Positions 5,895 to 57,981 of a DNA stretch of 64,000 bases are shown piece after piece. The stretch covers positions 6,308 to 70,307 of the IMG/VR virus record IMGVR_UViG_3300027763_000047. The stretch is one strand, 5' to 3'. The notes beneath the pieces were generated by a model. That model did no database searches. It was not told the origin of the DNA and saw nothing but the letters and a program-made list of their open reading frames with translations. A program made the position numbers and the translations under genes. The stretch is from a virus (lineage: Duplodnaviria; Heunggongvirae; Uroviricota; Caudoviricetes). Each line of letters opens with the position of its first letter. The first letter of the stretch is position 1.

Positions 5895-6161
5895 ATGACA
5901 ACAATGTGGATTGGTGATTTAAATCAGTATCGTGCGATACGTGAAATGTTTGACATTTATTGTACCGATATTAATAGCGAAGATTGTGCCAGCCCATTCG
6001 AAGACTATTGGAATCGCAGAATTAATTCCCCTACCATGTGTTACGTTATTGGGGTTACTAAAATAAAGGTAATGTCAGATGACGGGTCATATTATATACC
6101 ACTGCAATTATCATTTAATAGCGAAGAAGAACGAACATTTTGGTTGTTACAGAACTCATGA
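5895..6161 (+). CDS. small paralog-array protein, terminal divergent member
   Basis: ATG 5895 just after previous stop; C-term EEERTFWLLQNS. Confidence 0.5.
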   Translation: MTTMWIGDLNQYRAIREMFDIYCTDINSEDCASPFEDYWNRRINSPTMCYVIGVTKIKVMSDDGSYYIPLQLSFNSEEERTFWLLQNS

Positions 6162-7222
6162 AGATTAGATTACTGGGGCAGGCGAACGACAGCGGGATCG
6201 GTACACATTACGATAGATACACCCGAGCTTTACAATCGGTCAATGGATTGAACTCCATACTGGAGTTGTTGGATTTTACCGACGCCGATGCTGTAACGCA
6301 ATCCGCAAAATTAAGCACCGCAGGTGATATTAATATATCATTTGTCTGTGCCAATCTCAACGGATATTTTCGTGGACACAATATTAACTGGGCAGTATTT
6401 GAATCCACCCGCATACCCGATACTTTATATCAGGTAATGAATCAGCATATGCTTTGGTTACCGACAGAATGGGCACGCAAGATAGCCATAGCCCAGGGAA
6501 TTAAACCGGAACAGATAGCTGTGGTACCCGAGGGTGTGGACACTGACCTGTTCCATCCTTACGGCATACCGCAACACGAAGTCTTTAGGTTCCTAACCAT
6601 AGGCAAATACGAACAGCGTAAATCAATTGATGAAACGATTGATGCCTTTGCCCAGGTATATGGCGACAACCCTGAGGTGGAACTGGTGATTAAGTCAGAC
6701 TTTTTTCGTGAGCCCGAAGTTAAATATTACCAGTTGCTGGATAAGATTGCCAGTACCGGGGTCGACAACATACACTTGGTCTGGGGTTATCAGACACACG
6801 ACCAATTGGCCAACCTATATAGATCTGCTGATGTATTCCTAATGCCCACCAAGGCCGAGGGTTGGGGCTTGCCTTTAATTGAAGCTGCTGCCATTGGCTT
6901 ACCCATAGTGACAACGTTCCATGCGGGGCAGACAGAGTTCCTACAGCATATAAGATCCAGTTGTGTGTTTGTTGACTATCAACTGACACCCATAGCCTGT
7001 CCCGAGTACCAGGGATTTTACCCTGCTGCTGACGGTGACTACGGCAAGTGGGCAGTTTCTACTGTGCCGGCTATTGCTAAAGCTATTGAACAAGCGTATA
7101 ATAACTATGCAGCATTAAAGTCACAAGCAGTCAAGAACAGTGATGTTATCCGCACTAAATTCTCCTGGGCCAACAGCGTGACTGCATCATTGAGTACGCT
7201 CAAGCAGTGGGGTATGTTGTAA
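6158..7222 (+). CDS. glycosyltransferase, GT4 / Glycos_transf_1-like
   Basis: PTKAEGWGLPLIEAAAIGLPIVTT (E-x7-E motif); ATGA-coupled start at 6158. Confidence 0.8.
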   Translation: MKIRLLGQANDSGIGTHYDRYTRALQSVNGLNSILELLDFTDADAVTQSAKLSTAGDINISFVCANLNGYFRGHNINWAVFESTRIPDTLYQVMNQHMLWLPTEWARKIAIAQGIKPEQIAVVPEGVDTDLFHPYGIPQHEVFRFLTIGKYEQRKSIDETIDAFAQVYGDNPEVELVIKSDFFREPEVKYYQLLDKIASTGVDNIHLVWGYQTHDQLANLYRSADVFLMPTKAEGWGLPLIEAAAIGLPIVTTFHAGQTEFLQHIRSSCVFVDYQLTPIACPEYQGFYPAADGDYGKWAVSTVPAIAKAIEQAYNNYAALKSQAVKNSDVIRTKFSWANSVTASLSTLKQWGML

Positions 7223-9027: not shown

Positions 9028-9348
9028 TTATAGAAAATACCAGTTTCCGGGTGCATTGGCCAGGTCTCCAGGTAAGCCATAAGGAACGGTTCTACCGGCG
9101 TCAGTAAAAAACTCTACATCAATTGCTGTATACTGATGAGTGTATAAACGAACATTATCTGCGGCGGTGCCAGTGTTGCGCCACTCCCCATAACTGTCGC
9201 CAATTCCTGGGTTAGCATGCCATTCGGCTTGACTACCGGCAACAAAAAACGGTGTCCCGGGTCCAATAGTCCCTGGTAGTTCGCCTATATTAATGCCACC
9301 ACCTATTTCAATACCGTTGCCTACTTTAATTCCTAATGGGGGTGCCAT
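9028..9348 (-). CDS. putative tail-fiber tip/adhesin paralog C
   Basis: N-term MAPPLGIKVGNGIEIGGGINIG shared with two upstream genes. Confidence 0.55.
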   Translation of the reverse strand: MAPPLGIKVGNGIEIGGGINIGELPGTIGPGTPFFVAGSQAEWHANPGIGDSYGEWRNTGTAADNVRLYTHQYTAIDVEFFTDAGRTVPYGLPGDLANAPGNWYFL

Positions 9349-9357
9349 AATAATTCC

Positions 9358-10107
9358 TTAATATCCAAATCTTGTTTTGTAAGTGTTGTATTGTGCCTGT
9401 ATTGCGCTCAAACTTAACACACCGTCCCATACCTTTACCAAGCCCACATCAGCAGTGGGAACCTCTGAACTGGTGGTGGAATTAACATATCTACCAAACA
9501 ATCTTAGGCCGTTGAATCCACCGTTGGATGTGTTGGTATCATAAGTTGTTGTTGGCACAGTTGAGTTAGCAACATAGCTTTGTGAAAATGGAGATCCGGC
9601 GTCACCGTTATATGTTGCCCATATAAATTGCCAATTGCTGTCTGCAGGAATAGAATTACCTACAAAGGCATTGTTATAAAAAACATTTTGTACGTAACTA
9701 CTACCGTTAAACCATAAGCCCGCTAGCCAGTCTGGACTGGCGCTGTTGGCGTTTAACAATCTACCTGCCGCAATTGGTTGCGATCTGTACACCATCATCA
9801 CTGTGTAAGGTTGTGATGTTACGGAGTAATCTGGTCCAAATACCAAAAAGTCTGTGTCGGCGGCTGTAGTTTTGCGGAATATTCCGCCATCAGCAGGATC
9901 CCAAGACATACTGCCACTAGGATTAAGTGTTGTTATAGTGTAAGCGCCTGATCCCGCTATAGTTGTTCCATCCGCAGGCATGGTACTATAATTGGCCGCG
10001 TCAAGATCAAGAACTAAAACAGGTGGTATAGGTATTCGAACATCTGGACCAGCATTAATGCCGCCACCAAATGTAATGCCACCGCCAATTTGTAATGGTG
10101 CTACCAT
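9358..10107 (-). CDS. putative tail-fiber tip protein with concanavalin/LamG-like lectin fold
   Basis: N-term MVAPLQIGGGITFGGGINAG; W-x-F-I-W-A-T-Y-N-G ... V-K-V-W-D-G-V-L-S pattern. Confidence 0.5.
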   Translation of the reverse strand: MVAPLQIGGGITFGGGINAGPDVRIPIPPVLVLDLDAANYSTMPADGTTIAGSGAYTITTLNPSGSMSWDPADGGIFRKTTAADTDFLVFGPDYSVTSQPYTVMMVYRSQPIAAGRLLNANSASPDWLAGLWFNGSSYVQNVFYNNAFVGNSIPADSNWQFIWATYNGDAGSPFSQSYVANSTVPTTTYDTNTSNGGFNGLRLFGRYVNSTTSSEVPTADVGLVKVWDGVLSLSAIQAQYNTYKTRFGY

Positions 10108-10110
10108 AAT

Positions 10111-10434
10111 TTAATTTCCAGTAAATGTATAAAATAACCCACTGGTAAAGATTCCCCCAGTGATAGTAATTGTTTGTGCTCCTGGATCGGTACTGACCAC
10201 AGTTGCTCCTGGAATTTGATCCACTAACCAACCTGGCCCAACATTGTTTAAATTTGGTACACCAGTTAAAGAGTTCCAATTGCCAACAAAAAAGAATCCA
10301 ACGGCATCATTGCTGCCGGCTACATTTTGTACGCTGGGCGTTGTAGTCATTCCTTGGTAAATTTCGTGATTGCCAAGTTTAATACCACCGCCTATTTCAA
10401 TACCGTTGCCTATTTTAATTCCTGGAGCTACCAT
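10111..10434 (-). CDS. putative tail-fiber tip/adhesin paralog A
   Basis: N-term MVAPGIKIGNGIEIGGGIKLG. Confidence 0.55.
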   Translation of the reverse strand: MVAPGIKIGNGIEIGGGIKLGNHEIYQGMTTTPSVQNVAGSNDAVGFFFVGNWNSLTGVPNLNNVGPGWLVDQIPGATVVSTDPGAQTITITGGIFTSGLFYTFTGN

Positions 10435-10462: not shown

Positions 10463-13400
10463 TTAATAAAGTTTTGTATAACCATAATTAACTACCACAG
10501 AGTTGCCGCTGGTGTTGTTAATGCTAAAGTCAAATCTATTAGTAGTACTACTTGGAGCAACATTGCTTCTAACTATGGCGTTGGCTGTGCCTATAAATTG
10601 ATTGGGTATGCTGACAAAATCCAACGGTGTACCGCCACCGTTGTAAACCCAAGCATATTGTGTACCCACCACTGGAACATTGGTATTAGTAATGGTAGCT
10701 AGGGCATTCCACGCAATGATGCCGTTGGGTATATTGCCAGTGACCCACATATTATATGTGCCGCTACTTACAGTAAAGCTGTAAGTGTTGGTGCCAGCGG
10801 TTACTGACCAAGAGCCGGTTGTTTGTTGGGCCACATTGGTCAAGCCTGATCCATTACCAACAAAGGTATTAGCAGTAACATTGCCGGCAGCACTGATATT
10901 TGCACCAGAGATGTTGCCAGAAGAGGGTTCAACGGTAGCATAGTTATTATACTTTATATTACCATCATAGAGCATTATACTCATATAACCATTGGAGGTA
11001 ATATCTTGTGTGACTGCTGGAGCTGGTAAACTAGTTAATTGACTACCATTACCTAAAATATAATTGCCAGTAATATTACCGTAGGCACTTAGTGATCCGC
11101 CTGACATACTTGATGGTATCGTAATATCGCCACCACTTACTGTTAATCCTTGTACTCCGGTAATGTTGGCACTGACAACTGTTAGTTCTGACCCAGATGT
11201 TATGTTGCCCGAAACGCTAATATTGCCTTGTTGTATATTAAGATTACTTAGTACATTGCCACTTAAACTTAAATTACCACCATTGATATTTTGTCCATTT
11301 ACATTGGCACCTATTATATTGCCTTCCGCGCTAATGCTACCACCCATGCCGGTATTGGAAGACATTGTAAGATTTCCACCTTCCATTGTAAGGCCATTAA
11401 CACTATAAATGTTAGCGCCATATGCAAAGATGTTGCCACTCAAACTAATATTGCCTGCGGATATATTAGCAGCATTTACATTGCCGCTTATGTTGGCATT
11501 ACTAATAATATTACCTGATAAACTTAGGTTAGCGGCATTAATATCGCCTGAGAAGTTAGCACCAAAAGCATTAAGATATCCGCCGAGGCCAGTAATTTGA
11601 TTAATATTAATATTACCAGCATTGGAAGTAATGCCTGTTACTGTGTCAATTAATAATCCAGAGGCTGTAATGTTACCTGAAGTTGATATTACGTTACTAC
11701 CAAAGTCGCCTAAGAAGTTAGCCACGTTAGCGTTGCCATAATCGCTACCACCAATTGATACCGGGGTACCATTAGCGTAGTTAACTGCAAAAGTATTAGC
11801 TGGTAGAGTCAAGTTGCCTGTGTTACCAAATAACCATTGGTTAATGTTTGGGCCAGCGTTAGTAAAAATACCAACAGAGAAGTCGCTAGTAATACCAAAG
11901 ACGCCTTCGCCTCCGCTTATTGAAGAGTTGTCAGGAAACCTTAAACCACCATTTACACCAAATGTCCATTGTGCTGAGTTACCTACATTGTCATTAGTAT
12001 TAATAACAACGTTACCTGTGTTGGCTAGCTTGACGTACAAGTCATCACTGCCGAAGAACAATTCTGTAGAGTAAAGATTACCCGAAGTCAAGTGCAGATG
12101 ATTGGCATCATTAGTGGTTGGATAAATTAATAACTGTTGATCAGCATTTGTTCCACCTGTTGGCTTTAAAGCAATGGCACTGCCGCTAAGTCCGCCGTCC
12201 GGAATGTTGGTTTCATAGACAACACTATTCAATGGCAAGGTCAAGTTACCAGTAGTGTCAAAGTTCCAAGTCTTTGTGCCACTGACATTACCAGCCTGTA
12301 TGGCCACATTGCCATCCTGTAAAACAGCAACATTGGCTTGTTCATCTGTGCCCAAAATCACATTACCAACGCCACCACCAGCTGCTACATGTATATCCGC
12401 GTTCCCAGTCAAGTAAATATTTAAATACTCATTGCTGGCACCGTTTGGTTGTAGGTTTAAGTTTCCTGTGCCAATGATGTTGACATCATCAAATGTAACA
12501 TTACCTGTATTACCACCTCCGCCACTGAATGTAACAGGATCACCATTGGCATAGTTTACAGCGAATGTATTGGCTGGTAATGTTAAGTTACCAAGGCTAT
12601 CAAATATCCAAGTATTACCAGTTGAAGTGTACCCGTTCCAAGACTGTATGGAAACATTGCCGATTGGAGAAACTCCAACCATCACATTGGCACCAGCATC
12701 TTCACCTAATATAAGACTTCCATCATTGTTGGTAACATGAAGGTCTGGTCCAGAGGTTAGGAAGATGTCCAAATATGAAGCAGCATTGGTAGGATCTGGT
12801 TGTAAGTGTAAGTTACCTGTACCAATGACATTAATATCATTGAATGTTACATTGCCTGTGTTACCACCGCCACCGCCGTATGGACTACCGTTAGCATAGT
12901 TAATACTTGAGTAATTATTTGGTAATGTTATGTTACCGTCAACGCCGAATGTCCAATCAGTCGGAGCAGTATTATTATTACCGGCATTGGCAGCAGTATT
13001 ATATTTGGTTATTACAAATGTTGCCCCACCATTACCAGCAGTCATAGTCAATACATCACCTTCGGAATAACCTGTGCCCGGATCAGTTACACCAACGTTA
13101 ACAACCTGACCACTTAAACCATAACCGTAACCTACTATCATACCTGTACCTGTGCCTCCGGAAATAGCAGAAGAACTTCCGCCACCACCGTAACCACTGC
13201 CACCAGTTAGTAATGTACAGATATTATATTGACCTGTTACTCGTAGTGTCAAGTCGTTTACATTCGGTGCAATGATAGTAGCACTGTTGGGTAGTGTTAA
13301 GTTACCATTTACACCAAAGGCCCATGTATTGGCATTGGCTGTGATATTAACGCTAGTATTACTAGTTTCACTTATTTGGCTACCTTGAGGCAATGTCAAT

Positions 13401-16400
13401 GCACCACTAGCATTAAAATCCCATAGATTAGGACCAGGGCTACCATTTTGTCCTACTGCTATTCTAACAATACCTGATCCTGGAGTAGGGTTAGCATATA
13501 CTGCCGCTATGTTGCTGATGCCAACGTTCGCATAATCTTCTATCCATATGGATACTGCCGCACCATTGGCTCCAGTTGACAATATGGACAGTGGATGATC
13601 CGTAGATGCAATAGAAGCAATATTACCAGCAGGGTCATCAGGTGTGATAACTAAATTACCTGTTGGGAATGTTAAGTTACCAGTAGTGTCAAAGTTCCAC
13701 TGTGCTGAGTTTCCGGTGGCATCATCACTGCCGATCACAACATTGCCGGCGGCTTCTAATTTTACATACTTGATATCGGAGCCAAAGTATTGATCAAAAT
13801 AAGCATTGTTGCCTGTGTCAAGGTGTATGTGTGTGGCAACATCGCCACCACGCACTCGAATATATTGTAAATTGCCCACGCTTTCGGTGCCTGGAGCCAG
13901 GTACAGGCCACTGCTGCCAACTTGATCTCCAGTGCCCACAACAGCTTGATCGTCGAATGTAACGTTGCCTGTGTTGCCGCCGCCACCAGCCGTGTCATAT
14001 GTGATCTCACCAGTAGATGCATCATAATACATGGCATTTGCTGTGTTGGCTTGTCGCACTGGTTTCACTGTGAATGTGTTGACAGTGGTTTGCTCCAGGA
14101 CTGATCCTGTGGCGTTCAATATGATTGAGTTGTTGGCTTGATTGGAGTTGCCGGCTCCGTAGCCAATGGCCACTGCGTATTGGCCCTGTGTGTCTCGCCC
14201 GGCTCCATCACCAACGGCCACGGCCGAGATGCCTTGTGTGTTGTAACCAGCATTTTCGCCAATGGCCACTGCTGAGTTGCCTTGTGTGGTTTGACCAGCT
14301 TCAAAACCAATAGCCACGCCATAGATGCCTTGTGTGGTTTGACCAGCAAGTCTTCCAAATGCTATTGCCGAGGTTCCTTGTGTGGTTGCGCCAGCCCCAA
14401 AACCAATTGCTATTGCCGAGCCACCTTGTGTGGTTTGTCCAGCTCCTTGGCCCACAGCCACCGACGATTCACCTTGTGTGGTTTTACCAGCACTATCACC
14501 GATTGCTACTGATTGGTCACCTTGACTGGTATTACCAGCTTGATAACCAATGGCCACTGATATATTACCTTGATTGACATTACCAGCCGAGTTGCCAATG
14601 GCTACTGCAACCAGGCCTTGATTGGTTAGTCCAGCACCCGAACCAAATGCCACTGCGTCACCCACAGTGTCTTGAATTGTTGCACCGTTTGTGAGTGTGA
14701 TCACGCCTGTGCTGATATTGCCTGCTGTGATATTGCCCGTGGTGCTGATTGGGTTTGATCCTAATGCAGCCAAGTTAGCAACAACATTGGCGTTGCCATA
14801 ACTTGCGGAAATACCAGTCAGTTGACTACCGTTGCCCAGAATATAACTACCAGTGATGTTGCCAACAGCACTGATGTTGCCAGGCACAGTCAAGTTACCA
14901 TCTGTGCCAAAGGTCCATGCATTACCGGCAGTTCTATCCGTGATACTATAATTGTTGCTACCATTGCCAAGAATACCAAAGTCCCATTGCTGAGTTGCGG
15001 TGGCCTGATCCTGCACTGACATATAAGCACTACGCGGAGTATTGTAGTTGTCATCGTAGCCAACCACAGTAATGCCAGGGCCAGCCACAATGCCAAAGTC
15101 TGTGCTTTCTACTCTTGGAGTATTGACCGTTATGTATGGAGTATAATCAACTCGGGGCTGGTAAGCCGTGTTACCGTTAATATCCAATAGACCATCGCCA
15201 TCGAACTGCATGGTGGTGTAGGTATCACCAGGCGTACCGCCTTGATTGGAAAAATCTCCCAACCAATTTATCTGCACCGCTCCAGAGTTGCCGCTAGGAT
15301 AACCACCGTAAGGATCGCCATTGGCATAGTTGATTGATATTTCGCTGTTACCTGGCAGTGTTAAGTTACCATCAGTGTCAAAAGCCCAGTTATAGGTGTT
15401 TGTTCCAATTGATATGTTACCACCGGATTCTAACTTGACATATTTGCTATCATCACCAAAGTATTGATCAAAATAACCATTATCGCCAGTGTCAAGATGT
15501 ATGTGTGTGGCAACATCACCACCACGCACTCTCAAGTATTGTAAATTGCCCGAGCTGTTAGCGCCAGGAGCCAAATACAAGCCACTGCCGCCGATTTCAT
15601 CGCCTGTGCCTACTACAATGTTATTATCAAATGTAACATTACCCGTATTACCGCTACCAGATGGCAGACCAGTTAATTGACTTCCATTGCCTAGGATGTA
15701 ACTTCCGGTAATATTACCAGTTGTTGAAATTACTACGTTACTGTTTGCCAAATATGTAGAAACATCAGCATTTGAGTAACTGGCTGGAAGATTAGTTAAT
15801 TGACTTCCATTACCAACGAAATAATTAGCAGTAATATTGCCGGTAGCAGATACCGTACCTACTGTAAGAACTTCTGTTCCGGAATTATACTTGAATAAAT
15901 TAGAAGTAGTAATATAACCGGTAGAATTAGCAAACGCTACAGCATTAGCATAATAATTAGGAGAGTACAGATTATTTAAAGTAACATCGCCGGCGTTGAT
16001 TGATCCTGTCGTACTAATTGTGTTGGAACCAAAGTTTGCTAAGAAACCAGCAGTATTTGCATTTCCATAATTAGAAGCAATACCAGTTAGCTGACTGCCA
16101 TTGCCAAAGAAATAACTAGCGGTGATATTGCCAGTAGTTGATATATTTGATGTTAATGCTTGTAAGTAAGATGAAACATTGCCATTAGCATATACTTGGC
16201 CTTGTAATGTAGTTATATTACTTGAATTGTTTGAAACATTAGATTGAATACTAATTATAGTATTGTCAGTTGGCAAGTATACGGCTACATTACTGTTACC
16301 ATAACTAGTAGTAACTACAATATTTGATATCAGACCGCCATCACCAATAAAATAGCCACTTGTTGTAATATTACCTACAATAGATAAATTGGCGGTTGAT

Positions 16401-17437
16401 GCTAATTGATATGCCATTCCGGCTACAACAGCTGAGTTGGCATTGTCCGCTTGAACAGCATAAGTTGCTGCGTTAGCTGTTTGTGCTATAGTGGCTGTGT
16501 TAGCAAATGATGCTAAGTTGGCATTGATTGCGAATAAAGCAGTATCAGCATTGATCGCCTGAGTAGCCAATGCTGCTAGATTAGCTACATATGCTGTGTT
16601 AGCAACAAGAGCAAACGGCACATTACCTACAATAGCATTGGCTGTAATGTTAGTGATATTGCTGCCATTGCCATACAGATAATTAGCAGTAACTCTATTA
16701 CCAACAATAGCATTGGCATATACATTCCCGGTTGTTGATACATTACCAGTGATAGATAAGGCAGATATTTGTCCAAAACTAGTTAAGTTTGAATAATTTA
16801 TGCTATTGCTGAATGTATTTCCAAGTAAAGCATTGGCCTGTACATTGGCAATAACATTGGTTAAATTGGCACCATCACCGATGAAAGTAGGTGCTGTAAT
16901 AGCAATTGTGCTATTCCAGCTGTTAGCTGAGTAATTATATGTAAAGTTAGCTCCTGCTATAGGAATTAACAGTCCGCCGCCATTAGCCTGTGCTGCATTG
17001 GCAGCACCGGTTGCTAGTGTAACATTTGAATTAGCAACAGATAAATTAGAATAGTTAACAGTAATAACATTGCCTGTTACCTGCAGGTTACCAGCTACAT
17101 AGACATTACCGGAGAACGTACCGGTGGCAGCGTTTATATATTGAGCGTAAACTGTACTGAAACGATTGGTACCCAACCCAATTGACCGGACATTGGGCAC
17201 ATCTGGTACAAAGTTGGCTGCTGGCACAACAACACCAATGCCATTTGTGGCTAATTGTAAATTGCCATTGTTATTGGTAACCTGTATGGTATTGTTGGCA
17301 ATTGTGATATTGCTGCCCACCGGGCCCGCTGCAAAAAGCTGTGTAAAATTGTAATTGGTGTCGGTAAAAGCTGTACGAAGTGGCGCACCTGTGCCATCGT
17401 TAGCGATATTGCCGGTATTGATAATTATTTGTCCCAT
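10463..17437 (-). CDS. giant tail fiber protein (2324 aa)
   Basis: N-term MGQIIINTGNIANDGTGAPLRTAFTDTNYNFTQLF fiber motif; about 13 S-A-V-A-I-G-x-x-A-G-x-T-T-Q-G repeats; multiple W-x-F-x-x-x-G-N-L-T-L-P and GNGSQLTG modules. Confidence 0.85.
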   Translation of the reverse strand: MGQIIINTGNIANDGTGAPLRTAFTDTNYNFTQLFAAGPVGSNITIANNTIQVTNNNGNLQLATNGIGVVVPAANFVPDVPNVRSIGLGTNRFSTVYAQYINAATGTFSGNVYVAGNLQVTGNVITVNYSNLSVANSNVTLATGAANAAQANGGGLLIPIAGANFTYNYSANSWNSTIAITAPTFIGDGANLTNVIANVQANALLGNTFSNSINYSNLTSFGQISALSITGNVSTTGNVYANAIVGNRVTANYLYGNGSNITNITANAIVGNVPFALVANTAYVANLAALATQAINADTALFAINANLASFANTATIAQTANAATYAVQADNANSAVVAGMAYQLASTANLSIVGNITTSGYFIGDGGLISNIVVTTSYGNSNVAVYLPTDNTIISIQSNVSNNSSNITTLQGQVYANGNVSSYLQALTSNISTTGNITASYFFGNGSQLTGIASNYGNANTAGFLANFGSNTISTTGSINAGDVTLNNLYSPNYYANAVAFANSTGYITTSNLFKYNSGTEVLTVGTVSATGNITANYFVGNGSQLTNLPASYSNADVSTYLANSNVVISTTGNITGSYILGNGSQLTGLPSGSGNTGNVTFDNNIVVGTGDEIGGSGLYLAPGANSSGNLQYLRVRGGDVATHIHLDTGDNGYFDQYFGDDSKYVKLESGGNISIGTNTYNWAFDTDGNLTLPGNSEISINYANGDPYGGYPSGNSGAVQINWLGDFSNQGGTPGDTYTTMQFDGDGLLDINGNTAYQPRVDYTPYITVNTPRVESTDFGIVAGPGITVVGYDDNYNTPRSAYMSVQDQATATQQWDFGILGNGSNNYSITDRTAGNAWTFGTDGNLTVPGNISAVGNITGSYILGNGSQLTGISASYGNANVVANLAALGSNPISTTGNITAGNISTGVITLTNGATIQDTVGDAVAFGSGAGLTNQGLVAVAIGNSAGNVNQGNISVAIGYQAGNTSQGDQSVAIGDSAGKTTQGESSVAVGQGAGQTTQGGSAIAIGFGAGATTQGTSAIAFGRLAGQTTQGIYGVAIGFEAGQTTQGNSAVAIGENAGYNTQGISAVAVGDGAGRDTQGQYAVAIGYGAGNSNQANNSIILNATGSVLEQTTVNTFTVKPVRQANTANAMYYDASTGEITYDTAGGGGNTGNVTFDDQAVVGTGDQVGSSGLYLAPGTESVGNLQYIRVRGGDVATHIHLDTGNNAYFDQYFGSDIKYVKLEAAGNVVIGSDDATGNSAQWNFDTTGNLTFPTGNLVITPDDPAGNIASIASTDHPLSILSTGANGAAVSIWIEDYANVGISNIAAVYANPTPGSGIVRIAVGQNGSPGPNLWDFNASGALTLPQGSQISETSNTSVNITANANTWAFGVNGNLTLPNSATIIAPNVNDLTLRVTGQYNICTLLTGGSGYGGGGSSSAISGGTGTGMIVGYGYGLSGQVVNVGVTDPGTGYSEGDVLTMTAGNGGATFVITKYNTAANAGNNNTAPTDWTFGVDGNITLPNNYSSINYANGSPYGGGGGNTGNVTFNDINVIGTGNLHLQPDPTNAASYLDIFLTSGPDLHVTNNDGSLILGEDAGANVMVGVSPIGNVSIQSWNGYTSTGNTWIFDSLGNLTLPANTFAVNYANGDPVTFSGGGGNTGNVTFDDVNIIGTGNLNLQPNGASNEYLNIYLTGNADIHVAAGGGVGNVILGTDEQANVAVLQDGNVAIQAGNVSGTKTWNFDTTGNLTLPLNSVVYETNIPDGGLSGSAIALKPTGGTNADQQLLIYPTTNDANHLHLTSGNLYSTELFFGSDDLYVKLANTGNVVINTNDNVGNSAQWTFGVNGGLRFPDNSSISGGEGVFGITSDFSVGIFTNAGPNINQWLFGNTGNLTLPANTFAVNYANGTPVSIGGSDYGNANVANFLGDFGSNVISTSGNITASGLLIDTVTGITSNAGNININQITGLGGYLNAFGANFSGDINAANLSLSGNIISNANISGNVNAANISAGNISLSGNIFAYGANIYSVNGLTMEGGNLTMSSNTGMGGSISAEGNIIGANVNGQNINGGNLSLSGNVLSNLNIQQGNISVSGNITSGSELTVVSANITGVQGLTVSGGDITIPSSMSGGSLSAYGNITGNYILGNGSQLTSLPAPAVTQDITSNGYMSIMLYDGNIKYNNYATVEPSSGNISGANISAAGNVTANTFVGNGSGLTNVAQQTTGSWSVTAGTNTYSFTVSSGTYNMWVTGNIPNGIIAWNALATITNTNVPVVGTQYAWVYNGGGTPLDFVSIPNQFIGTANAIVRSNVAPSSTTNRFDFSINNTSGNSVVVNYGYTKLY

Positions 17438-29371: not shown

Positions 29372-29503
29372 GTACCGCTATAACTACCATTATATGCGTA
29401 GTTATAGCAGTTAAGTACAAGGTTATTCAAAAGATTTGTTAGTTAAATAATCTTGCTATATAATATGTTACTCAATGTAGTTCAATTTAAAAAAGGAAAA
29501 GTA

Positions 29504-30673
29504 ATGAAATTTACTCAAAAAATGCTGGCAGCAGCTTTACTGGCACTAGGTCTTGGATCTAGCGCAGCTCACGCCGCAGACTCGTCTGTGACACTATACG
29601 GTATCTTAGATGCCGGTCTCCAAGGCTCTTCACAAAGTTTGTCCAACGGTTACTCATCAAGTAATGTTGGATTGGCCTCTGGTGTGCAGTCAGGCAATCG
29701 CTTTGGTATCAAAGGTTCGGAAGATTTAGGTTCAGGTCTTCGTGCTACTTTTGCTCTTGAAGCAGGCTTCAACTTAGGTAGTGGTGTTAGTCAGCAAAAT
29801 GGCACCTTGTTTGGTCGTCAATCATGGGTTGGTGTTGAAAGCAGCTCGTTAGGTTACGCTCGTGTAGGTAAGCAATATAACTTTGCAACAGACTATGTTG
29901 GCGCAATTGATCCATTCCTCTTGGGATTTGGTCAGGCTAATATGGGTACCACATTCGGTGCTGCTAATACTACCCGTTATAACAACATGGTTAAGTATCA
30001 GACACCAACATGGAATGGCTTAACAGCTGGTGTTGGTTATTCGTTTGCTAACGGCTTGGCTAGTTTGTATGCTGATCCAGCTAACTACGGTGGATATGTT
30101 GCTGCTAACACATACAACTATGCCACAGCTAACAACGCTCGTACATTAACAGCTGGTATTAAGTATGCGTCTGGTCCCGTGACTGTTGTTGGTTCATATG
30201 ATGTTATGTATGGTCCTGAAAACATTGTTGGTTCAAATGCTGCTAATCCATCACAGTGGATTGTGGGCGGTGCGTATGACTTCTCAGTTGCTAAAATTGC
30301 TGCTGCGTACAGTCAGTCACGTAACGGTTGGATCAATGGACAAGCTAGTGTAGACCCAACATTCACAGCCAACACTTATAACAGTGGTGCCGGTGCCGTG
30401 TTGTATAGTCCTTCGTTTGGTGCTAACAGCTATCTAGTAGGTGCTACTGTTCCTGTAACAGGCGCACAGAAAGTATTTGCCAGCTATCAATATGCTACTC
30501 CGGTCGCATCAATGGCTGCTGCTGCTAATCTGAGCATTTATTCAGTTGGTTATCAATATGACTTGTCAAAGCGTACCAATGCGTATGCCTATGCTAGTCA
30601 GGCTCAAAACTATGCGTTCTTAGACGGTGCCAAGAGCACAGTTTATGGACTTGGTTTACGGCATCAGTTCTAG
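29504..30673 (+). CDS. Gram-negative outer-membrane porin (betaproteobacterial porin_4-like)
   Basis: signal peptide ending AHA-AD; VTLYGILDAG; C-terminal ...GLRHQF; start at ATG 29504 after AAGGAAAAG. Confidence 0.75.
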   Translation: MKFTQKMLAAALLALGLGSSAAHAADSSVTLYGILDAGLQGSSQSLSNGYSSSNVGLASGVQSGNRFGIKGSEDLGSGLRATFALEAGFNLGSGVSQQNGTLFGRQSWVGVESSSLGYARVGKQYNFATDYVGAIDPFLLGFGQANMGTTFGAANTTRYNNMVKYQTPTWNGLTAGVGYSFANGLASLYADPANYGGYVAANTYNYATANNARTLTAGIKYASGPVTVVGSYDVMYGPENIVGSNAANPSQWIVGGAYDFSVAKIAAAYSQSRNGWINGQASVDPTFTANTYNSGAGAVLYSPSFGANSYLVGATVPVTGAQKVFASYQYATPVASMAAAANLSIYSVGYQYDLSKRTNAYAYASQAQNYAFLDGAKSTVYGLGLRHQF

Positions 30674-37851: not shown

Positions 37852-38264
37852 CCCCCTCACTGACCTCTGTAATTAACGGCGGGTATGTTACCACCAGTAC
37901 CACTGGTCCGGTGTACTACACTGGTGGTGGCATTGTCGGCGGCGGCGGCTATGCCGGTGGTGCTGGATTTGGCGGTGGTAATACTGCTATAGGCATTGGG
38001 TCATGGTCCAGTCAGCCAGCACCAGCCACAATCACTGCCGGCACACTAGAGCTATCGGGCGATAAAGCTGATATTAAAATCAATGGTGTCAGTCTAAATG
38101 ACACTTTAACAGCTATACAAAAAAAATTAGATGTATTAACCGTCAATCCTAAATTAGAAAATGAATGGGACAAGCTCAAGGAATTGGGTGAACAATATCG
38201 CAAGCTGGAAGCCGAACTTGCAGAAAAATCTCGTATGTGGGCAGCTTTAAAAAAGACTGAGTGA
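37776..38264 (+). CDS. glycine-rich protein with C-terminal coiled coil
   Basis: GGGIVGGGGYAGGAGFGGG; start uncertain (overlaps previous ORF). Confidence 0.4.
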   Translation: MDRYGKWIMAANKATNDPNNTTATVAPSLTSVINGGYVTTSTTGPVYYTGGGIVGGGGYAGGAGFGGGNTAIGIGSWSSQPAPATITAGTLELSGDKADIKINGVSLNDTLTAIQKKLDVLTVNPKLENEWDKLKELGEQYRKLEAELAEKSRMWAALKKTE

Positions 38265-38830
38265 TGAAAATTAAATATTTTTCATTACTGGTCTTGTTGG
38301 GATTGGGCGGGTGTTTAACTACACCCGTTCTAGACTCTACACTAACATCGGTTGACTATGAATTAATGGATGCATTGATCTATGAAAGAACACCAACTCC
38401 ATTGGTTAAAACTCCACTATTTTCTCCCAAGGACATTGAATGTCTGGCCCGGAATATATATTACGAATCAGGAGCAGAGCCACTTGAAGGCAAAGTTGCT
38501 GTGGCTGTGGTAACCATCAATCGCTCGAAAGATGAGAGATTTGGTTCAAAAACGCTATGCGGCATTATATACACAAGAACAAATATAGGCAAGGGTGTGA
38601 TAGTTTGCCAGTTTAGCTGGACCTGTGGTACTAAAATTCCAATTAAAAAAGATAGTGAGCATTGGCGGTTATCCAAGGAAGTTGCTGAGAACATAGCTCG
38701 TGGCGATTACAGTGAGTACTCGTACAAATATCGAAAAGCCCTATTCTTTCACGCTGTATCAGTCAAGCCATCATGGGCTTATGTCAAGCGTGTAGTAGCC
38801 CGTATCGGCGGCCATGTATTTTATGAATAG
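38261..38830 (+). CDS. SleB-like cell-wall hydrolase (Hydrolase_2), lipoprotein
   Basis: lipobox LLGLGGC; ECLARNIYYESGAEPLEGKVAVAVVTINR...QFSW. Confidence 0.65.
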   Translation: MMKIKYFSLLVLLGLGGCLTTPVLDSTLTSVDYELMDALIYERTPTPLVKTPLFSPKDIECLARNIYYESGAEPLEGKVAVAVVTINRSKDERFGSKTLCGIIYTRTNIGKGVIVCQFSWTCGTKIPIKKDSEHWRLSKEVAENIARGDYSEYSYKYRKALFFHAVSVKPSWAYVKRVVARIGGHVFYE

Positions 38831-42334: not shown

Positions 42335-45076
42335 ATGACAGCACAGCCTATTTGGATTACTCCCCCTGGTAGTTTAGGTACTGTACCAGAAGGTGCTTAC
42401 TACGAAGTACCACTGCGTGTTACCGATACGTTTACCACTGACCTCATAGGTATCGTGGGTAGTGGATCTTCAGTCACAGCTACATTTTATACTCAGACAG
42501 TATCCATGTTCCAACCTGGTGATACTGTTGTGGTCACTGGAGTTAACCCGTCATCTTATAACGGTAGCTTTATAGTAACCAAATGTACCACTACACAAAT
42601 TACATATACGAGTTCGGCTACCGGTACTTGGATCGGTGGCGGTACTATCACTTCCGTGCCATCGACTGTATATTTTGAATCTATTGCTGGCGCATTACCC
42701 GATGGTATTGAATGCACGACATCTGGCGTACTACAGGGTACTCCTACCAATGTGGTTACAGTGGCAGATGAAGCATTGGTAGTGGGAGTCAATGTTACCA
42801 GTAAATTTGCTATTAGGGCCTATACAACCAAAACAGTTGGTGGCATTACTGTCATTAATAGATTAGCCGATAGAACATTTACTATAACGGTCGCTGGGCA
42901 AAATCTACCCAGTTGGATCACACCTGCGGGCGAACTTAGTCAGCTATGGGTAGGTGAATTGTTGTCCCCAGGTATACAATTAGATTATACTACTGATAAT
43001 ACAACTGGAATTCCGCCGGCTATCAGCTTGTATTCGGGGAGTTTGCCCCCGGGAATTACAGTTAGTGATACTGGCTTAATTTCTGGATTTGTTGGCTTAA
43101 ATCCAACAACATCTGCTCAACCTGGATTCAGTGTTAACGGTCAAGGATTTAGTACATACCCATTTGATTTTGATATAGAAGCACAAAATTCCACATATAC
43201 ATTTACACTACAGGTTACTGATGGTCGAATATCTGCATTACGAGAATTTAGCCTATTCGTATGGAGTACTGAGGCATTTACTGCTGACACTACCTTGATC
43301 ACAGCTGATAACACCTATCTAACAGCCAGCATATCCAGTGTTAATACCCCAGTGATAACAAACCCTCAGGGATCTATTGGCACCACATACAGCAATACAT
43401 ATTTTGCTTACCAATTTGTGGGGAAGAATATTACCGGAGACACTATAGGGTATACTGGTGCTTCGTTACCCACAGGGTTAACACTTAATTCAACAACTGG
43501 ATGGTTAACCGGATACTTACCTACAATTGGGCTATTCGAATCTACTTTTGATTTTACAGTAACCGCATACCTAACCAACTCGCCATCAGTGACTAGTGAT
43601 CCATATGATTTTAGCCTGACAGTTGAAGGACCTATATTCTCCAATGTGACCTGGCTCACACCCTCCAACTTGGGCACCATTGCCAATGGGTCCACCAGTA
43701 TATTTTATGTTGAGGCGACCAATACTACTAACACAAATTTACAGTATCAATTAGTATCAGGATCAGATTCAAAATTACCGCAGGGATTAACTCTATTGCC
43801 ATCAGGTAATATTGCTGGGCGTGTAAGTTTTAATGCATACCCCACCCCCGCTCAGTATGGTAGCACAGTATACACCTTTACAGTAAACGCTTACAGTACT
43901 AATGGATTTATCAGTGTTAATAAAACGTTCTCCATCACGGTGGAGCGTGTCTACGAGACACCTTATCAAAACTTGTATATCCAATGTATGCCGCCGGTTG
44001 ATGATCGAGAATTGATTGCTAGTTTACTGCAAAATTCTACTATCTTTACTCCGTCACTACTATATCGTCCCGATGATACTAACTTTGGATTGAGTCGCAA
44101 TGTCGTGTATCATCATGCATATGGATTAAATGCTGCCAGCGTGGATACCTATGTATCCTCACTTCAACTTAACCACTACTGGAAGAATTTACTCTTGGGA
44201 GAAATTAAAACAGCACAAGCTGTCGACCCTTTAACAGGTAATGTAGTGTACGAAGTAGTATATTCGGAAATCATAGATAGCTTAGTCAACAATGACAATC
44301 TAAGTGTTGGCAAAGAAGTGGTGCTGGCCTATCCAATAGAAGAGCAAACAATTGATGTAGTGTACCCTAATTCGCTTGATAACATGAGAGATCAGGTAAT
44401 TGACGTAGTGGGACAGGAGAGTGACCTGTTACCGTTATGGATGCAGAGTTCCCAAGCAGATGGTAAAGTTTTAGGGTTTATCCCAGCATGGGTAATTGCA
44501 TATACAATACCAGGGGCGTCGGGGCAGATACAATACAATATACAGACACAGTTTGGAATCCAATTAAATCTAGTGGATTTTGTAGCCGATCGGTATGAGC
44601 TTGATAACGCTCTTACAGTTAACTGGGATGGCAACACACAAAGTTGGGTACCAAGCCCACCGGAGACGACATCATTTGACATCAATTACCACTATAATGT
44701 CACTATAGGCACAGCAGGCAATGTATACCTAGCGGGTGATCAAATTAAGATCTTAGGCTCGTCACTGGGCGGGGTAACTCCTGCTAATGATTTACTCATA
44801 ACGGTCAATACTGTAAATACCAATGGTGCCATCCTTGATGCATTCTATTATGGTACTGCCAATAGCGCAGCGGCTGGTAATTCCTATGATAACTTAGCCG
44901 GGGTAAATGTAGTTGGTCCAGGCACTGGGGCCACTTGGGATATTACTGTAGTACCAGGAGTCGAAACTGTATTTGACGGGGGAAGCGTTACCTTTATTGC
45001 TCCAGCAGATACAGATACCAGCTCCACTGCTAACGACAAATACTTGTTGTATCCCAAATACAATATATTAGTTTAA
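42335..45076 (+). CDS. tail fiber/structural protein (913 aa)
   Basis: Ser/Thr/Gly/Asn-rich beta-rich composition; directly downstream of fiber gene. Confidence 0.55.
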   Translation: MTAQPIWITPPGSLGTVPEGAYYEVPLRVTDTFTTDLIGIVGSGSSVTATFYTQTVSMFQPGDTVVVTGVNPSSYNGSFIVTKCTTTQITYTSSATGTWIGGGTITSVPSTVYFESIAGALPDGIECTTSGVLQGTPTNVVTVADEALVVGVNVTSKFAIRAYTTKTVGGITVINRLADRTFTITVAGQNLPSWITPAGELSQLWVGELLSPGIQLDYTTDNTTGIPPAISLYSGSLPPGITVSDTGLISGFVGLNPTTSAQPGFSVNGQGFSTYPFDFDIEAQNSTYTFTLQVTDGRISALREFSLFVWSTEAFTADTTLITADNTYLTASISSVNTPVITNPQGSIGTTYSNTYFAYQFVGKNITGDTIGYTGASLPTGLTLNSTTGWLTGYLPTIGLFESTFDFTVTAYLTNSPSVTSDPYDFSLTVEGPIFSNVTWLTPSNLGTIANGSTSIFYVEATNTTNTNLQYQLVSGSDSKLPQGLTLLPSGNIAGRVSFNAYPTPAQYGSTVYTFTVNAYSTNGFISVNKTFSITVERVYETPYQNLYIQCMPPVDDRELIASLLQNSTIFTPSLLYRPDDTNFGLSRNVVYHHAYGLNAASVDTYVSSLQLNHYWKNLLLGEIKTAQAVDPLTGNVVYEVVYSEIIDSLVNNDNLSVGKEVVLAYPIEEQTIDVVYPNSLDNMRDQVIDVVGQESDLLPLWMQSSQADGKVLGFIPAWVIAYTIPGASGQIQYNIQTQFGIQLNLVDFVADRYELDNALTVNWDGNTQSWVPSPPETTSFDINYHYNVTIGTAGNVYLAGDQIKILGSSLGGVTPANDLLITVNTVNTNGAILDAFYYGTANSAAAGNSYDNLAGVNVVGPGTGATWDITVVPGVETVFDGGSVTFIAPADTDTSSTANDKYLLYPKYNILV

Positions 45077-47431: not shown

Positions 47432-47899
47432 ATGACAACAAAAGTCTATAAAACCGCAAAAGGTAAACCAGTAGACCTTGGAGCATTACGTTTACAAAAC
47501 GAAAATGTTCGAGCAGTTGGTAATATGAATGTAAATGCCCGTGGGGATAGGATCGACGCTGATGGCAACGTAATTGACCCTCGTAATCAACAGATTCAAC
47601 GACGAATACAACGACAAACTAATGTGGCCAGCGGACCGGTACACTCAAGCTCACGTGCTCAACAAGCGGAACAGGTAGCAGCAGAAAATCCAGTGATGCC
47701 CACACGACCAGTAGCACCGGCTGCGGATCCACTCCCTATTCCAGCGGCTCCTCCGGTTGCAACTAGGGAAACAATCGTTACCCAAGATAATGCATTTGCC
47801 GCGGCAATGGGACGTACCAAGACAGTTACACAGACGTTAGAATTAACCGAACGTCAGAAATTAGAAAATCAAATAGCGCAAGCAAAAAAGGGAAAATGA
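47432..47899 (+). CDS. hypothetical protein
   Basis: 155 aa; Pro/Ala-rich middle. Confidence 0.5.
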   Translation: MTTKVYKTAKGKPVDLGALRLQNENVRAVGNMNVNARGDRIDADGNVIDPRNQQIQRRIQRQTNVASGPVHSSSRAQQAEQVAAENPVMPTRPVAPAADPLPIPAAPPVATRETIVTQDNAFAAAMGRTKTVTQTLELTERQKLENQIAQAKKGK

Positions 47900-48291
47900 A
47901 AGCACAGTACGCACCACATAAAGTAGAAAAGCAGAAACTTAAAGTATTACAAAACAATGTTCTGGTATCGGATATGGTGTTTGATGAACGTATCAGTACA
48001 GGCGGTATCTTACTGTTAAATGACAATGGCAAAGGCAATGGTATTCGCCCACGCTGGGGTCGTGTATACGCAGTAGGTCCAGAACAAAAAGATGTTAACG
48101 TAGGTGATTGGGTATTGGTAGCACATGGTCGTTGGACTAGGGGTTTAGATCTCGAAGACGAAAATGGCAAATTAACCGTTCGTAAGATTGATCCTAAAGA
48201 TATCCTACTAGTATCAGATGACGAAGAGTGCCCCACAGTCGAAGGCATTAGTTCTGCCGTGCATGTAGATCGTAAGGAAATGCCTAATTAA
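47896..48291 (+). CDS. co-chaperonin GroES-like (Cpn10)
   Basis: TGGILL, RVYAVGPE...VNVGDWVLV, KDILLV match GroES core. Confidence 0.6.
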   Translation: MKAQYAPHKVEKQKLKVLQNNVLVSDMVFDERISTGGILLLNDNGKGNGIRPRWGRVYAVGPEQKDVNVGDWVLVAHGRWTRGLDLEDENGKLTVRKIDPKDILLVSDDEECPTVEGISSAVHVDRKEMPN

Positions 48292-55701: not shown

Positions 55702-57981
55702 ATGCAAAACAACAAAGAAATTGAAGCAATTGTAGGGCAGGCGGTTTCGATTGCTCGGATTAAACATCACGAGTATGTGCTAACCGAACATATATTATTG
55801 GCCTTAATACGCCACATTCCTTTCCGCAAAGTACTGGAAGGATTCGGTACAAGTATTGCACTCATGGACGAGGAATTAGATGTCTATTTGGACAGTTTAA
55901 CCAGTATAGTTACATCTAAGTCAGAATTTCAACCACGTAAAACTAACGCCCTTGAACGTTGTTTTAATCGGGCTATGACACAGGTGTTATTTACTGGCCG
56001 CCGTTCAGTAACCACATTTGATTTGTATCTTGCTATGATGAGTGAGACAAACAGTCACGCACATTACTTCCTGATGAAGTATGGAGTTAAGAAAGCCGAG
56101 TTTATGGAATACTGGCAGCAAAATTATAAAGCTGAAGATGCCGAGGTTAGTGCTTCTGAAGCTGATGCCATCTTAACTGAATTTTGTACAAACCTAACCA
56201 AAATGGCTACTGAAGATAAGTTAGAGCCAATGATTGGCCGCTCAGCTGAACTAGACGAAATCATTACTGTACTGGCTCGAAAGTTTAAAGCTAACGTACT
56301 AATGGTGGGCGATCCGGGTGTAGGCAAAACTGCCATCGCAGAAGGGCTTGCCCAGGAAATTGTAAACAACCGTGTACCCGCATTCCTTAACGGACATGAA
56401 GTATGGAGTTTGGAAATCGGCTCATTGTTAGCCGGCAGTAAGTATCGTGGCGAATTTGAGGAAAAGTTTAAACAGGTCATTGGTGCATTAGAAGCCAAGA
56501 AAAATTGTATCTTATTTGTTGATGAAGCACATACAATGAAAGGCGCTGGCGCAAGTTCACAATCATCACTAGACTTTGCTAATATGCTAAAGCCAGCTAT
56601 TACCAAGGGTTATCTTAAGGTAATTGCGTCAACTACCTGGGAAGAATTCTATGAGTCATTTGAAAAGGATCGTGCGCTAATGCGTCGATTCCATCGTGTG
56701 TCCATTGACGAACCCACGCCAGAAGTAACGGAGCAAATCTTAATCGGCTTATCACCTCGCTTGGAAAAATTCCACGATGTGTTGATTGATACTGATGCTA
56801 TTAAAGCAGCAGTAGACTTGTCGGGTCGTTACATACATGATCGCAAGAATCCAGATAAGTCAATTGACTTGCTAGACGGTGCATGTGCCAAGGAACGTGT
56901 TAAAGATATAGGCACTACTACTGTGACTAAAGACATGATCATGGCACAGTTGAGTCGTATTACTGAGGTTCCCATGGATCGTTTACAAAACGAACGTTCG
57001 GCTAATATTGTGGAACTGGAAGGTAATATTAAACAGAAGTTGTATGGCCAAGACGAAGCTGTTAATTCGGTACTTGAGCGGGTATACATTAACTTCTCGG
57101 GTATTGGTAACGAAAACAAACCAATTGCCAGCTTCTTATTCTTGGGACCAACTGGCACAGGTAAGACAGAATTGGCCAAGTTATTGGCTGAGCATTTAGA
57201 TATGCAGTTGTTGAAATATGACATGAGTGAGTTCCAGGAGAAGCATACTGTTAGCTCATTGATTGGTGCTCCCCCAGGATACGTTGGGTTTGAAGATGGT
57301 AATGTGGGTGGTGGAAAACTTATTAGTGATGTCAGTAAGAACCCTTATTCAATCTTGTTGTTTGATGAAATTGAAAAGGCACATCCGGATGTAGTTAACC
57401 TTATGTTGCAAATGTTGGATGAAGCTCGCATCACCAGTGCCAATGGTAAAACTGTTAACCTGAAGAACTGCATCATTATTATGACCAGTAACTTAGGTGC
57501 TCGCGACAATGAGAATAACAACATTGGCTTTGGGCAGACACTGGAAAAGACAGGATCAGAACACAAGGCAATGAAGGATTTCTTTAAACCTGAATTACGT
57601 AATCGTATTGATCAAATCTGTCGCTTTAAGAAACTAGATACACTGGCTGTTAAGAAAATTGTTGTTAAATTTGTTGATCAACTACAAACCAGTTTAAGCA
57701 CAAAGAATATTCGTCTTAACTTATCCGAGCCAGTAATCGACATGCTGGTTGAAAAAGGCTATGATAACAAGATGGGTGCTCGACCATTAAATCGTAAGAT
57801 TGATGAACTTATTCGCGTACCATTGAGTAAGAAAATTCTCTTTGAACGATTAAGTGACTGTGTAATTACAGCGGACATGGTTAATGATCAAATTGACTTT
57901 ATCATCATACCTAATCCCGCATTAGCTATTGTCGACAACTCAGGAATTATTTTACTTGATGGCGAATCTTCCACCGTTTAA
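55702..57981 (+). CDS. ClpA-like AAA+ unfoldase (two AAA domains)
   Basis: Clp-N LTEHILLALI; D1 GDPGVGKTAIAEGLA; D2 GPTGTGKTELAKLLAE, LLFDEIEKAHPDV; 759 aa. Confidence 0.85.
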   Translation: MQNNKEIEAIVGQAVSIARIKHHEYVLTEHILLALIRHIPFRKVLEGFGTSIALMDEELDVYLDSLTSIVTSKSEFQPRKTNALERCFNRAMTQVLFTGRRSVTTFDLYLAMMSETNSHAHYFLMKYGVKKAEFMEYWQQNYKAEDAEVSASEADAILTEFCTNLTKMATEDKLEPMIGRSAELDEIITVLARKFKANVLMVGDPGVGKTAIAEGLAQEIVNNRVPAFLNGHEVWSLEIGSLLAGSKYRGEFEEKFKQVIGALEAKKNCILFVDEAHTMKGAGASSQSSLDFANMLKPAITKGYLKVIASTTWEEFYESFEKDRALMRRFHRVSIDEPTPEVTEQILIGLSPRLEKFHDVLIDTDAIKAAVDLSGRYIHDRKNPDKSIDLLDGACAKERVKDIGTTTVTKDMIMAQLSRITEVPMDRLQNERSANIVELEGNIKQKLYGQDEAVNSVLERVYINFSGIGNENKPIASFLFLGPTGTGKTELAKLLAEHLDMQLLKYDMSEFQEKHTVSSLIGAPPGYVGFEDGNVGGGKLISDVSKNPYSILLFDEIEKAHPDVVNLMLQMLDEARITSANGKTVNLKNCIIIMTSNLGARDNENNNIGFGQTLEKTGSEHKAMKDFFKPELRNRIDQICRFKKLDTLAVKKIVVKFVDQLQTSLSTKNIRLNLSEPVIDMLVEKGYDNKMGARPLNRKIDELIRVPLSKKILFERLSDCVITADMVNDQIDFIIIPNPALAIVDNSGIILLDGESSTV

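Follow-up and report, generated by a model that had tools for sequence, protein, structure and literature searches.

The 64,000-nucleotide stretch analysed here (the window; positions 6,308 to 70,307 of the tailed-virus record IMGVR_UViG_3300027763_000047, Caudoviricetes) carries on its minus strand a single open reading frame (ORF) that is open over 6975 nt and is the complete coding sequence of a 2324-residue fibre-like protein, referred to below as the giant fibre. The ORF begins with ATG, with AGGA positioned 7 nt upstream, and both its start and its stop match the ends of homologous proteins. This agrees with the gene boundaries given in an earlier reading of the letters alone (the sequence-only reading), which had described the product as a tail fibre built from repeated modules. 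Glycine, asparagine, threonine, alanine and serine together account for 57% of the residues. The parts of the protein and the other features discussed here are collected in Table 1.

Table 1. Parts of the giant fibre and other features of the window
Feature	Residues	Window positions	Strand	Basis or remark
Giant fibre, whole ORF	1-2324	10463-17437	-	
gp9/gp10-type N-terminal motif (INTGNIANDGTGAPLRTAF..N.NF.QLF), presumed baseplate-docking element	1-38	17324-17437	-	PDB and PHROG profiles, hhalign
Proximal shaft, conserved, ~70% identical in many homologues	39-390	16268-17323	-	Homologue alignments
Shaft of ~40-residue units YGNANV..FL..GSN.ISTTGNITA.YF.GNGSQLTG	391-593	15659-16267	-	Motif counts
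Module A copy 1	594-700	15338-15658	-	HxH 645-647, W-motif 684
Unique insert, fold without family match	701-852	14882-15337	-	W-motif at its end
GNGSQLTG unit and lead-in to repeat block	853-926	14660-14881	-	
11 tandem 16-residue repeats xSAVAIGxxAGxTTQG	927-1102	14132-14659	-	Predicted YadA-like head beta-roll
Neck, NNSIILNATG...FTVKPVR...YYD..TGEITY	1103-1150	13988-14131	-	Kept with repeat block in homologues
Module A copy 2	1152-1263	13649-13984	-	HxH 1203-1205, duplicate of copy 1
Short segments ending in W-motif	1264-1383	13289-13648	-	W 1339, 1372
Gly-rich segment, GxGY motifs	1384-1506	12920-13288	-	Least conserved among homologues
Module A copies 3, 4 (single His) and 5 (HxH 1780-1782)	1523-1840	11918-12871	-	Copies at 1523-1621, 1640-1735, 1737-1840
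GN(I/V)S-rich region with ~80-residue internal repeat	1900-2125	11063-11740	-	
Two terminal GNGS.LT units	2126-2203	10829-11062	-	
C-terminal eight-strand beta-sandwich	2204-2324	10466-10828	-	Conserved, extreme C-terminus in homologues
107-residue ORF, Gly-rich N-terminal tag		10111-10434	-	28 nt downstream of the fibre; candidate tip partner or assembly factor
249-residue ORF, same tag		9358-10107	-	Conserved at homologous loci
106-residue ORF, same tag		9028-9348	-	
GT4-type glycosyltransferase		6140-7222	+	
Porin-like ORF		29453-30673	+	Porin_4, E 2e-41
Endolysin-like protein		38261-38830	+	
Second fibre-like ORF, 473 residues		40902-42323	+	
913-residue ORF		42335-45076	+	He_PIG Ig-like domain
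GroES-like co-chaperonin		47896-48291	+	
ClpA/ClpB-type double AAA+ ATPase		55702-57981	+	

Across 54 homologues, the first 35 residues of the giant fibre (MGQIIINTGNIANDGTGAPLRTAFTDTNYNFTQLF) hardly vary. When a profile covering its first ~110 residues (A1) was searched against PDB sequences, it aligned with residues 2-34 of the T4 baseplate wedge protein gp10 (E 8.4e-5), with the gp9-like 'baseplate wedge tail fiber connector' 9f4a_LN (E 6.8e-3) and with T4 gp9 (E 0.25), and hhalign returned a probability of 81% for the N-terminus against T4 gp10 and 36% in a further gp9/gp10 comparison. The PHROG family phrog_677, 'baseplate wedge tail fiber protein connector', matches residues 1-75 (E 5.6e-4). 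By tblastn, ~51% identity over 35 residues was found both to the N-termini of cyanophage gp9-like connectors and to a 971-residue fibre of the cultured Synechococcus phage S-SCSM2R. All of these matches run N-terminus to N-terminus and all are to baseplate or fibre proteins, and the N-terminal family matches that fall below threshold are without exception to baseplate, tail-fibre or tailspike proteins. The motif common to T4 gp10 and gp9, the cyanophage connectors and the giant fibre reads I.xGxxxxDGTGDxLRxxxxKxNxNFxxLY and occupies the same position in each. In T4, the N-terminal domain of gp9 binds gp7, and gp9 and gp10 have N-terminal parts in common (PMC3004832). From the shared motif and the gp9-gp7 interaction we infer that this element would dock the giant fibre on the baseplate. 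The T4 proteins are trimers of the baseplate periphery, whereas the giant fibre is 4-8 times longer and fibrous. A second fibre-like ORF in the window, of 473 residues, opens with the same motif of the gp9/gp10 type (MSQQIINVGTAPNDGLGTPIRTAFQYTNNNFTQLF) and has GNGSQLTG units, so that at least two proteins of this phage carry the motif, as gp9 and gp10 do in T4. The 913-residue ORF that follows it has no relative in the PDB.

The whole giant fibre returned nothing useful from Pfam, PHROG or PDB sequences, and nine segments of it gave no match in NCBIfam. Residues ~60-105 weakly resemble stalk segments of the cyanophage P-SCSP1u fibre gp28, a tailspike and an endosialidase (PDB profile, E 0.09-0.85) and, in Pfam, the family End_tail_spike (E 0.007). 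The shaft units at residues 391-593 score at best 22.1 bits against the Chlorovirus glycoprotein repeat (Chlorovi_GP_rpt, PF06598; cutoff 27), a family that is fully matched in some homologues (P0025, P0055, P0091).

Internal repetition was assessed by comparing 120-residue fragments with the remainder of the protein, and 20 composition-preserving shuffles were run as a control because biased composition alone can yield spurious self-matches. The giant fibre gave 74 off-diagonal high-scoring segment pairs at or above 40 bits, 19 of which reached 60 bits or more, with a top score of 149 bits against 41 bits for the best shuffled match, so the internal repeats proposed by the sequence-only reading are real. 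The duplicated block that it had picked out was recovered as residues 601-715 against 1159-1275 (64% identity, E 8e-47); in the DNA, the repeat shows as a 243-nt match at 78% identity between 13743-13985 and 15417-15659. Further matches pair residues 1486-1599 with 1602-1715 (53% identity) and 1921-2040 with 2001-2121 (44%, an internal repeat of ~80 residues). Other proposed units are present in smaller numbers than had been suggested: the 'many' GNGSQLTG units amount to five GNGSQLT and one GNGSGLT, and of some ten composite modules said to join a W-motif, NYANG and GNTGNVTF, the W-motif (WxFxxxGxLxxP) does occur ten times, NYANG and GNTGNVTF occur four times each, but the full composite is found only twice, around residues 1495-1532 and 1610-1649. 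The true recurring unit is a segment of ~105-115 residues, which we term module A, present in five copies.

Module A has the consensus GNTGNVTF...LYLAPG...RVRGGD..THIHLDTG...YVKL...W.F...GNLTLP. Pfam, PHROGs, NCBIfam and the PDB sequences hold no match to it, and tblastn found no copy in GenBank phages. Searches of the PDB with its profile (A2) and with a profile of the C-terminal domain (A3) produced only a weak ricin-type QxW-like resemblance (E 0.18), of which no use was made, and A2 retrieved only short unnamed fragments from a word-indexed database. Among the 120 homologues listed, 166 copies were found in 82 proteins, and an exhaustive profile search of 1.84 billion representative proteins recovered 2,811 clusters at E <= 1e-3, of which 457 reached E <= 1e-30; a matching protein typically contained several copies. 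W.F is conserved in 163 of the 166 copies and an HxH motif in 86. Six of the ten histidines of the giant fibre fall in three HxH motifs (residues 645, 1203 and 1780; chance expectation 0.04), which share one column of the module A alignment, and two more histidines align with the position of the second histidine. In T4 gp37, HxH coordinates iron on the trimer axis, and the same has been proposed for marine phage fibres (PMC11705849). By analogy with gp37, we hypothesize that the HxH motifs of the giant fibre may bind metal on a trimer axis. T4 gp34 and gp37 and the other HxH-bearing fibres are long, repetitive and trimeric, and the giant fibre is likewise long and repetitive with three HxH motifs; in gp37, however, the motifs are stacked in the needle tip, whereas here they recur once per ~110-residue module. 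A relationship to gp34/gp37 was rejected, there being no sequence or Pfam similarity.

The tandem array in the middle of the protein (14126-14655) has a period of 48 nt, or 16 residues, with 11 full copies at residues 927-1102 and a degenerate 12th, which corrects the earlier count of about 13 repeats of 14 residues. The Pfam model YadA_head scored 22.2 bits on this block, below its cutoff of 25, and a PHROG tailspike family matched it with E 2e-5. Residues 850-1290 were modelled as a monomer with AlphaFold2 (AF2) from an alignment of 30 homologous fragments. In the model the repeat block is a regular solenoid with one short strand per 16 residues (predicted local distance difference test, pLDDT, 80-89), and the whole model contains a single short helix. 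Residues 927-1150 are predicted to form a YadA-like adhesin head, a left-handed parallel beta-roll, together with its neck, and this replaces the earlier label of 'classical phage tail-fibre repeats'. The structures of YadA-like heads used for comparison were YadA (1p9h), BpaC (7o23), UspA1 (3pr7), CbpF (9u93) and BoaA (3s6l). YadA heads are trimers, as are gp9 and gp10. The giant fibre shares its head repeats with the trimeric autotransporter adhesins, but carries them amid a phage fibre. There are phage precedents for this arrangement: a YadA-like domain occurs in a pelagiphage tail fibre (PMC3909814), YadA homologues are found in phiEco32, P-HM2 and My1 (PMC3728262), and we found a YadA-like block in ORF-006 of the jumbo phage PTm1. 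In each case the block lies within a fibre-like protein, as here, but the proteins concerned are of smaller size and start differently, the pelagiphage one with a T7-type N-terminus and that of PTm1 with no N-terminus of a recognisable type, and none has module A or the C-terminal domain of the giant fibre.

The last ~120 residues were modelled as an eight-strand beta-sandwich, with block-mean pLDDT values of 66-93 except in a single loop of low confidence (model residues 159-173). Searches by PDB profile, by structure and against GenBank phages turned up no relative that was convincing in structure or sequence, and Pfam showed no Peptidase_S74 chaperone (PF13884) at this C-terminus. The sandwich occupies the extreme C-terminus of 33 homologues at 50-75% identity, and at related loci the gene just downstream encodes a second, shorter fibre that ends in it too (371 residues at 8021-9136 of L001 and 798 residues at 15930-18326 of L003). 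The corresponding position in the window holds the 107-residue ORF only. Module A and this sandwich appear, from sequence comparison, to be two abundant domain families absent from curated libraries and solved structures alike.

Three small ORFs lie downstream of the giant fibre in the same orientation, separated by gaps of 28, 3 and 9 nt, and all three begin with the Gly-rich tag M(VA)P..I.IG.GI.IGGGI..G. By gene position, their products could be tip partners or assembly factors. The 249-residue protein has no Pfam, NCBIfam or PHROG match; its C-terminal motif is reminiscent of LamG-type jelly rolls. In one related locus (L004, 19110-20021), an extremely Gly-rich ORF of 303 residues with GGGGAGG runs follows the conserved ~240-residue protein, and its N-terminus (MGVSIGAGVAFGIG) loosely resembles the tag.

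Megablast of 50,697 GenBank phage records with the gene, and with a 25-kb part of the window, gave no match, and the whole protein had a single GenBank-phage match, which lies in the repeat block of PTm1 ORF-006. In a JGI metagenome, an 84.8-kb contig encodes an identical protein, and at least 538 relatives were found, many longer than 1300 residues and the longest of 3327. Two of them (1666 and 1971 residues) lie on contigs of 278-352 kb in the same gene neighbourhood, which comprises a divergent small helix-turn-helix-like gene upstream, a conserved ~240-residue protein downstream and a GT4 glycosyltransferase gene a few kilobases away. The contig sizes and synteny therefore indicate a lineage of uncultured jumbo phages in which a fibre-like gene of varying length occupies a conserved locus. 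The 971-residue protein of S-SCSM2R, annotated 'FhaB', shares the N-terminal motif and '..TA..F.G(N/D)GS.L..(V/I)' units with the giant fibre, but it has collagen-like repeats and lacks module A, the YadA head and the C-terminus.

Comparison with these relatives bore out the module shuffling that the sequence-only reading had anticipated. Many homologues share residues 1-390 (~70% identity) and the last ~160 residues, with middles that differ in content and order; a conserved N-terminal anchor is thus combined with variable, exchangeable middle modules, and the extreme C-terminal domain is conserved as well. P0008, P0012 and P0019, otherwise 30-50% identical, match residues 1643-1840 at 81-82% identity, each at a different position. 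Against P0005, the syntenic gene of a 347-kb contig, residues 974-1133 are 95-100% identical between flanks of 30-50%; the matching 801-nt block is gapless and 90.8% identical (41 codons differ synonymously and 17 non-synonymously), compared with 69-82% for other aligned pieces of the gene and 67-77% for neighbouring genes in related loci. Modules far more alike than their flanks, and found at shifting positions, support the exchange of whole modules between lineages of related phages, and it is plausible that such exchange would alter host range.

Taken together, these observations are best accounted for if an uncultured jumbo phage carries the protein on its virion as a very long, probably trimeric fibre, likely anchored on the baseplate and serving host adsorption, a reading to which we assign a probability of about 0.6. 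Giant mosaic phage fibres are a known kind of object, represented here without a close cultured relative. That the protein is a modular phage fibre, as the sequence-only reading held, is well supported; the tail location that it also assumed is likely, and leans mainly on the ~35-residue N-terminal motif. Several observations weigh against the baseplate-anchored fibre. The gp9/gp10 match spans only ~35 residues with individually modest E-values: the alignments end at residue ~35-40, and neither the XD1-XD3 domains of gp10 nor the middle and C-terminal domains of gp9 were detected in PDB and Pfam searches. PHROG scans of 30 other ORFs of the window recognised no baseplate, sheath or tube gene, and the giant gene sits among non-structural and unassigned genes, outside any tail module. 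The C-terminal domain would be expected to vary if it were a receptor-binding tip, yet it is conserved among the 33 homologues and also ends the second fibre of related loci. Finally, the only cultured-phage match of the repeat block is to PTm1, a phage known for capsid fibres.

The leading alternative is that the giant fibre is mounted on the capsid, neck or tail sheath of a 'hairy' jumbo phage and makes a reversible first contact with the host, instead of being the tail fibre that triggers the baseplate. Capsid fibres are found in the jumbo phages PTm1 and PTm5, and sheath hairs in Erwinia phage Y3 (PMC13282480). PTm1 ORF-006 adjoins head-completion and neck genes, and the absence of a recognisable tail module around the giant gene also favours such a location. 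ORF-006, however, lacks the gp9/gp10-type N-terminus that the giant fibre has in common with its 54 homologues, and the uniformly baseplate, tail-fibre or tailspike nature of the sub-threshold N-terminal matches also points to the tail. We regard attachment elsewhere on the virion as possible but rather unlikely.

The YadA-like head fold raises a second alternative, a phage-encoded adhesin that is not part of the virion but that the infected cell carries on its surface or releases, in the manner of a trimeric autotransporter or an FhaB-type protein. Metagenome annotations call some homologues 'filamentous hemagglutinin' or 'trimeric autotransporter adhesin', and for YadA homologues of Salmonella phages that lie outside tail modules a possible role in virulence has been discussed (PMC3728262). 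Against this, Pfam and NCBIfam searches with the whole protein and its segments detected no YadA membrane anchor, coiled-coil stalk or secretion-related family. The N-terminus (MGQIIINTGNIANDG) is by eye polar rather than hydrophobic, matching baseplate proteins and unlike a signal peptide, and relatives bear the phage-fibre domains Peptidase_S74 (P0070, P0073) and Mtd_N. A cell-associated adhesin is accordingly most improbable, and assignment to the trimeric autotransporter class was rejected in view of the missing anchor and the soluble eight-strand sandwich predicted at the C-terminus. A low-complexity artefact or decayed gene with purely compositional repeats, suggested by the strong residue bias and by whole-length shuffles that still align at up to 92 bits when composition correction is turned off, is excluded by the long open frame, the hundreds of homologues with matching ends, repeat scores far above the fragment-wise shuffles, the excess of synonymous changes in the block shared with P0005 and the ordered domains given by AF2.

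For the baseplate-anchored fibre, the mechanism we envisage is that a trimer would attach through the N-terminal motif to a protein of the baseplate wedge, much as gp9 binds gp7 by its N-terminal domain, and that the shaft would hold the adhesive modules, namely the YadA-like head and the C-terminal domain, out towards the host surface. The HxH motifs may bind metal along the trimer axis in the way of T4 gp37, the three small Gly-rich-tagged proteins may serve at the tip or in assembly, and recombination at module borders would shift binding specificity. A bolder combination, which we consider doubtful as a whole, is that module A is an undescribed shaft-domain family specific to uncultured aquatic jumbo phages and binds a metal ion on the trimer axis, that the C-terminal sandwich is a universal socket, and that the small proteins, being interchangeable, dock into it by their common tag and are the true receptor-binding adhesins; exchange of shaft modules (the YadA-like head among them) and exchange of tip proteins would then each alter specificity.

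Large uncultured phages recognise their hosts by means of giant mosaic fibres, and the present example illustrates how one is put together: it joins a docking motif of the T4 type, an adhesin head that was either borrowed from bacterial autotransporters or is shared with them, and the two uncovered domain families. Defining the module A and C-terminal sandwich families would better annotate thousands of metagenomic phage proteins, and the repeated HxH motifs, if metal-binding, would carry the idea of iron-bearing phage fibres to jumbo phages. The current understanding of tail-fibre function is left unchanged.

The remaining phage-type genes recognised in the window are a clamp loader, the GroES-like, endolysin-like and ClpA-like genes of Table 1, and members of several PHROG families without assigned function. 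The ClpA-like ATPase is ~40% identical to proteins of the Pseudomonas jumbo phage PA5oct and other large phages, and related contigs additionally encode ClpP, rubrerythrin, TerC and radical SAM proteins. A sigma-70 consensus matching at 12 of 12 positions (TTGACA, 18 nt, TATAAT) falls within the giant ORF, on the coding strand (13223-13252, minus strand); the scan for promoters and terminators scored no better overall than shuffles, and the match may be due to chance. The giant fibre contains 86 N-x-S/T sequons, mostly in GNIT, GNVT and NIS motifs, against 58 +/- 6 in shuffles. The GT4-type glycosyltransferase gene near the fibre locus is kept in both related contigs. The fibre may be glycosylated. 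The strong match of one ORF to Gram-negative porins (Table 1), an odd cargo for a phage, hints at a Gram-negative host.

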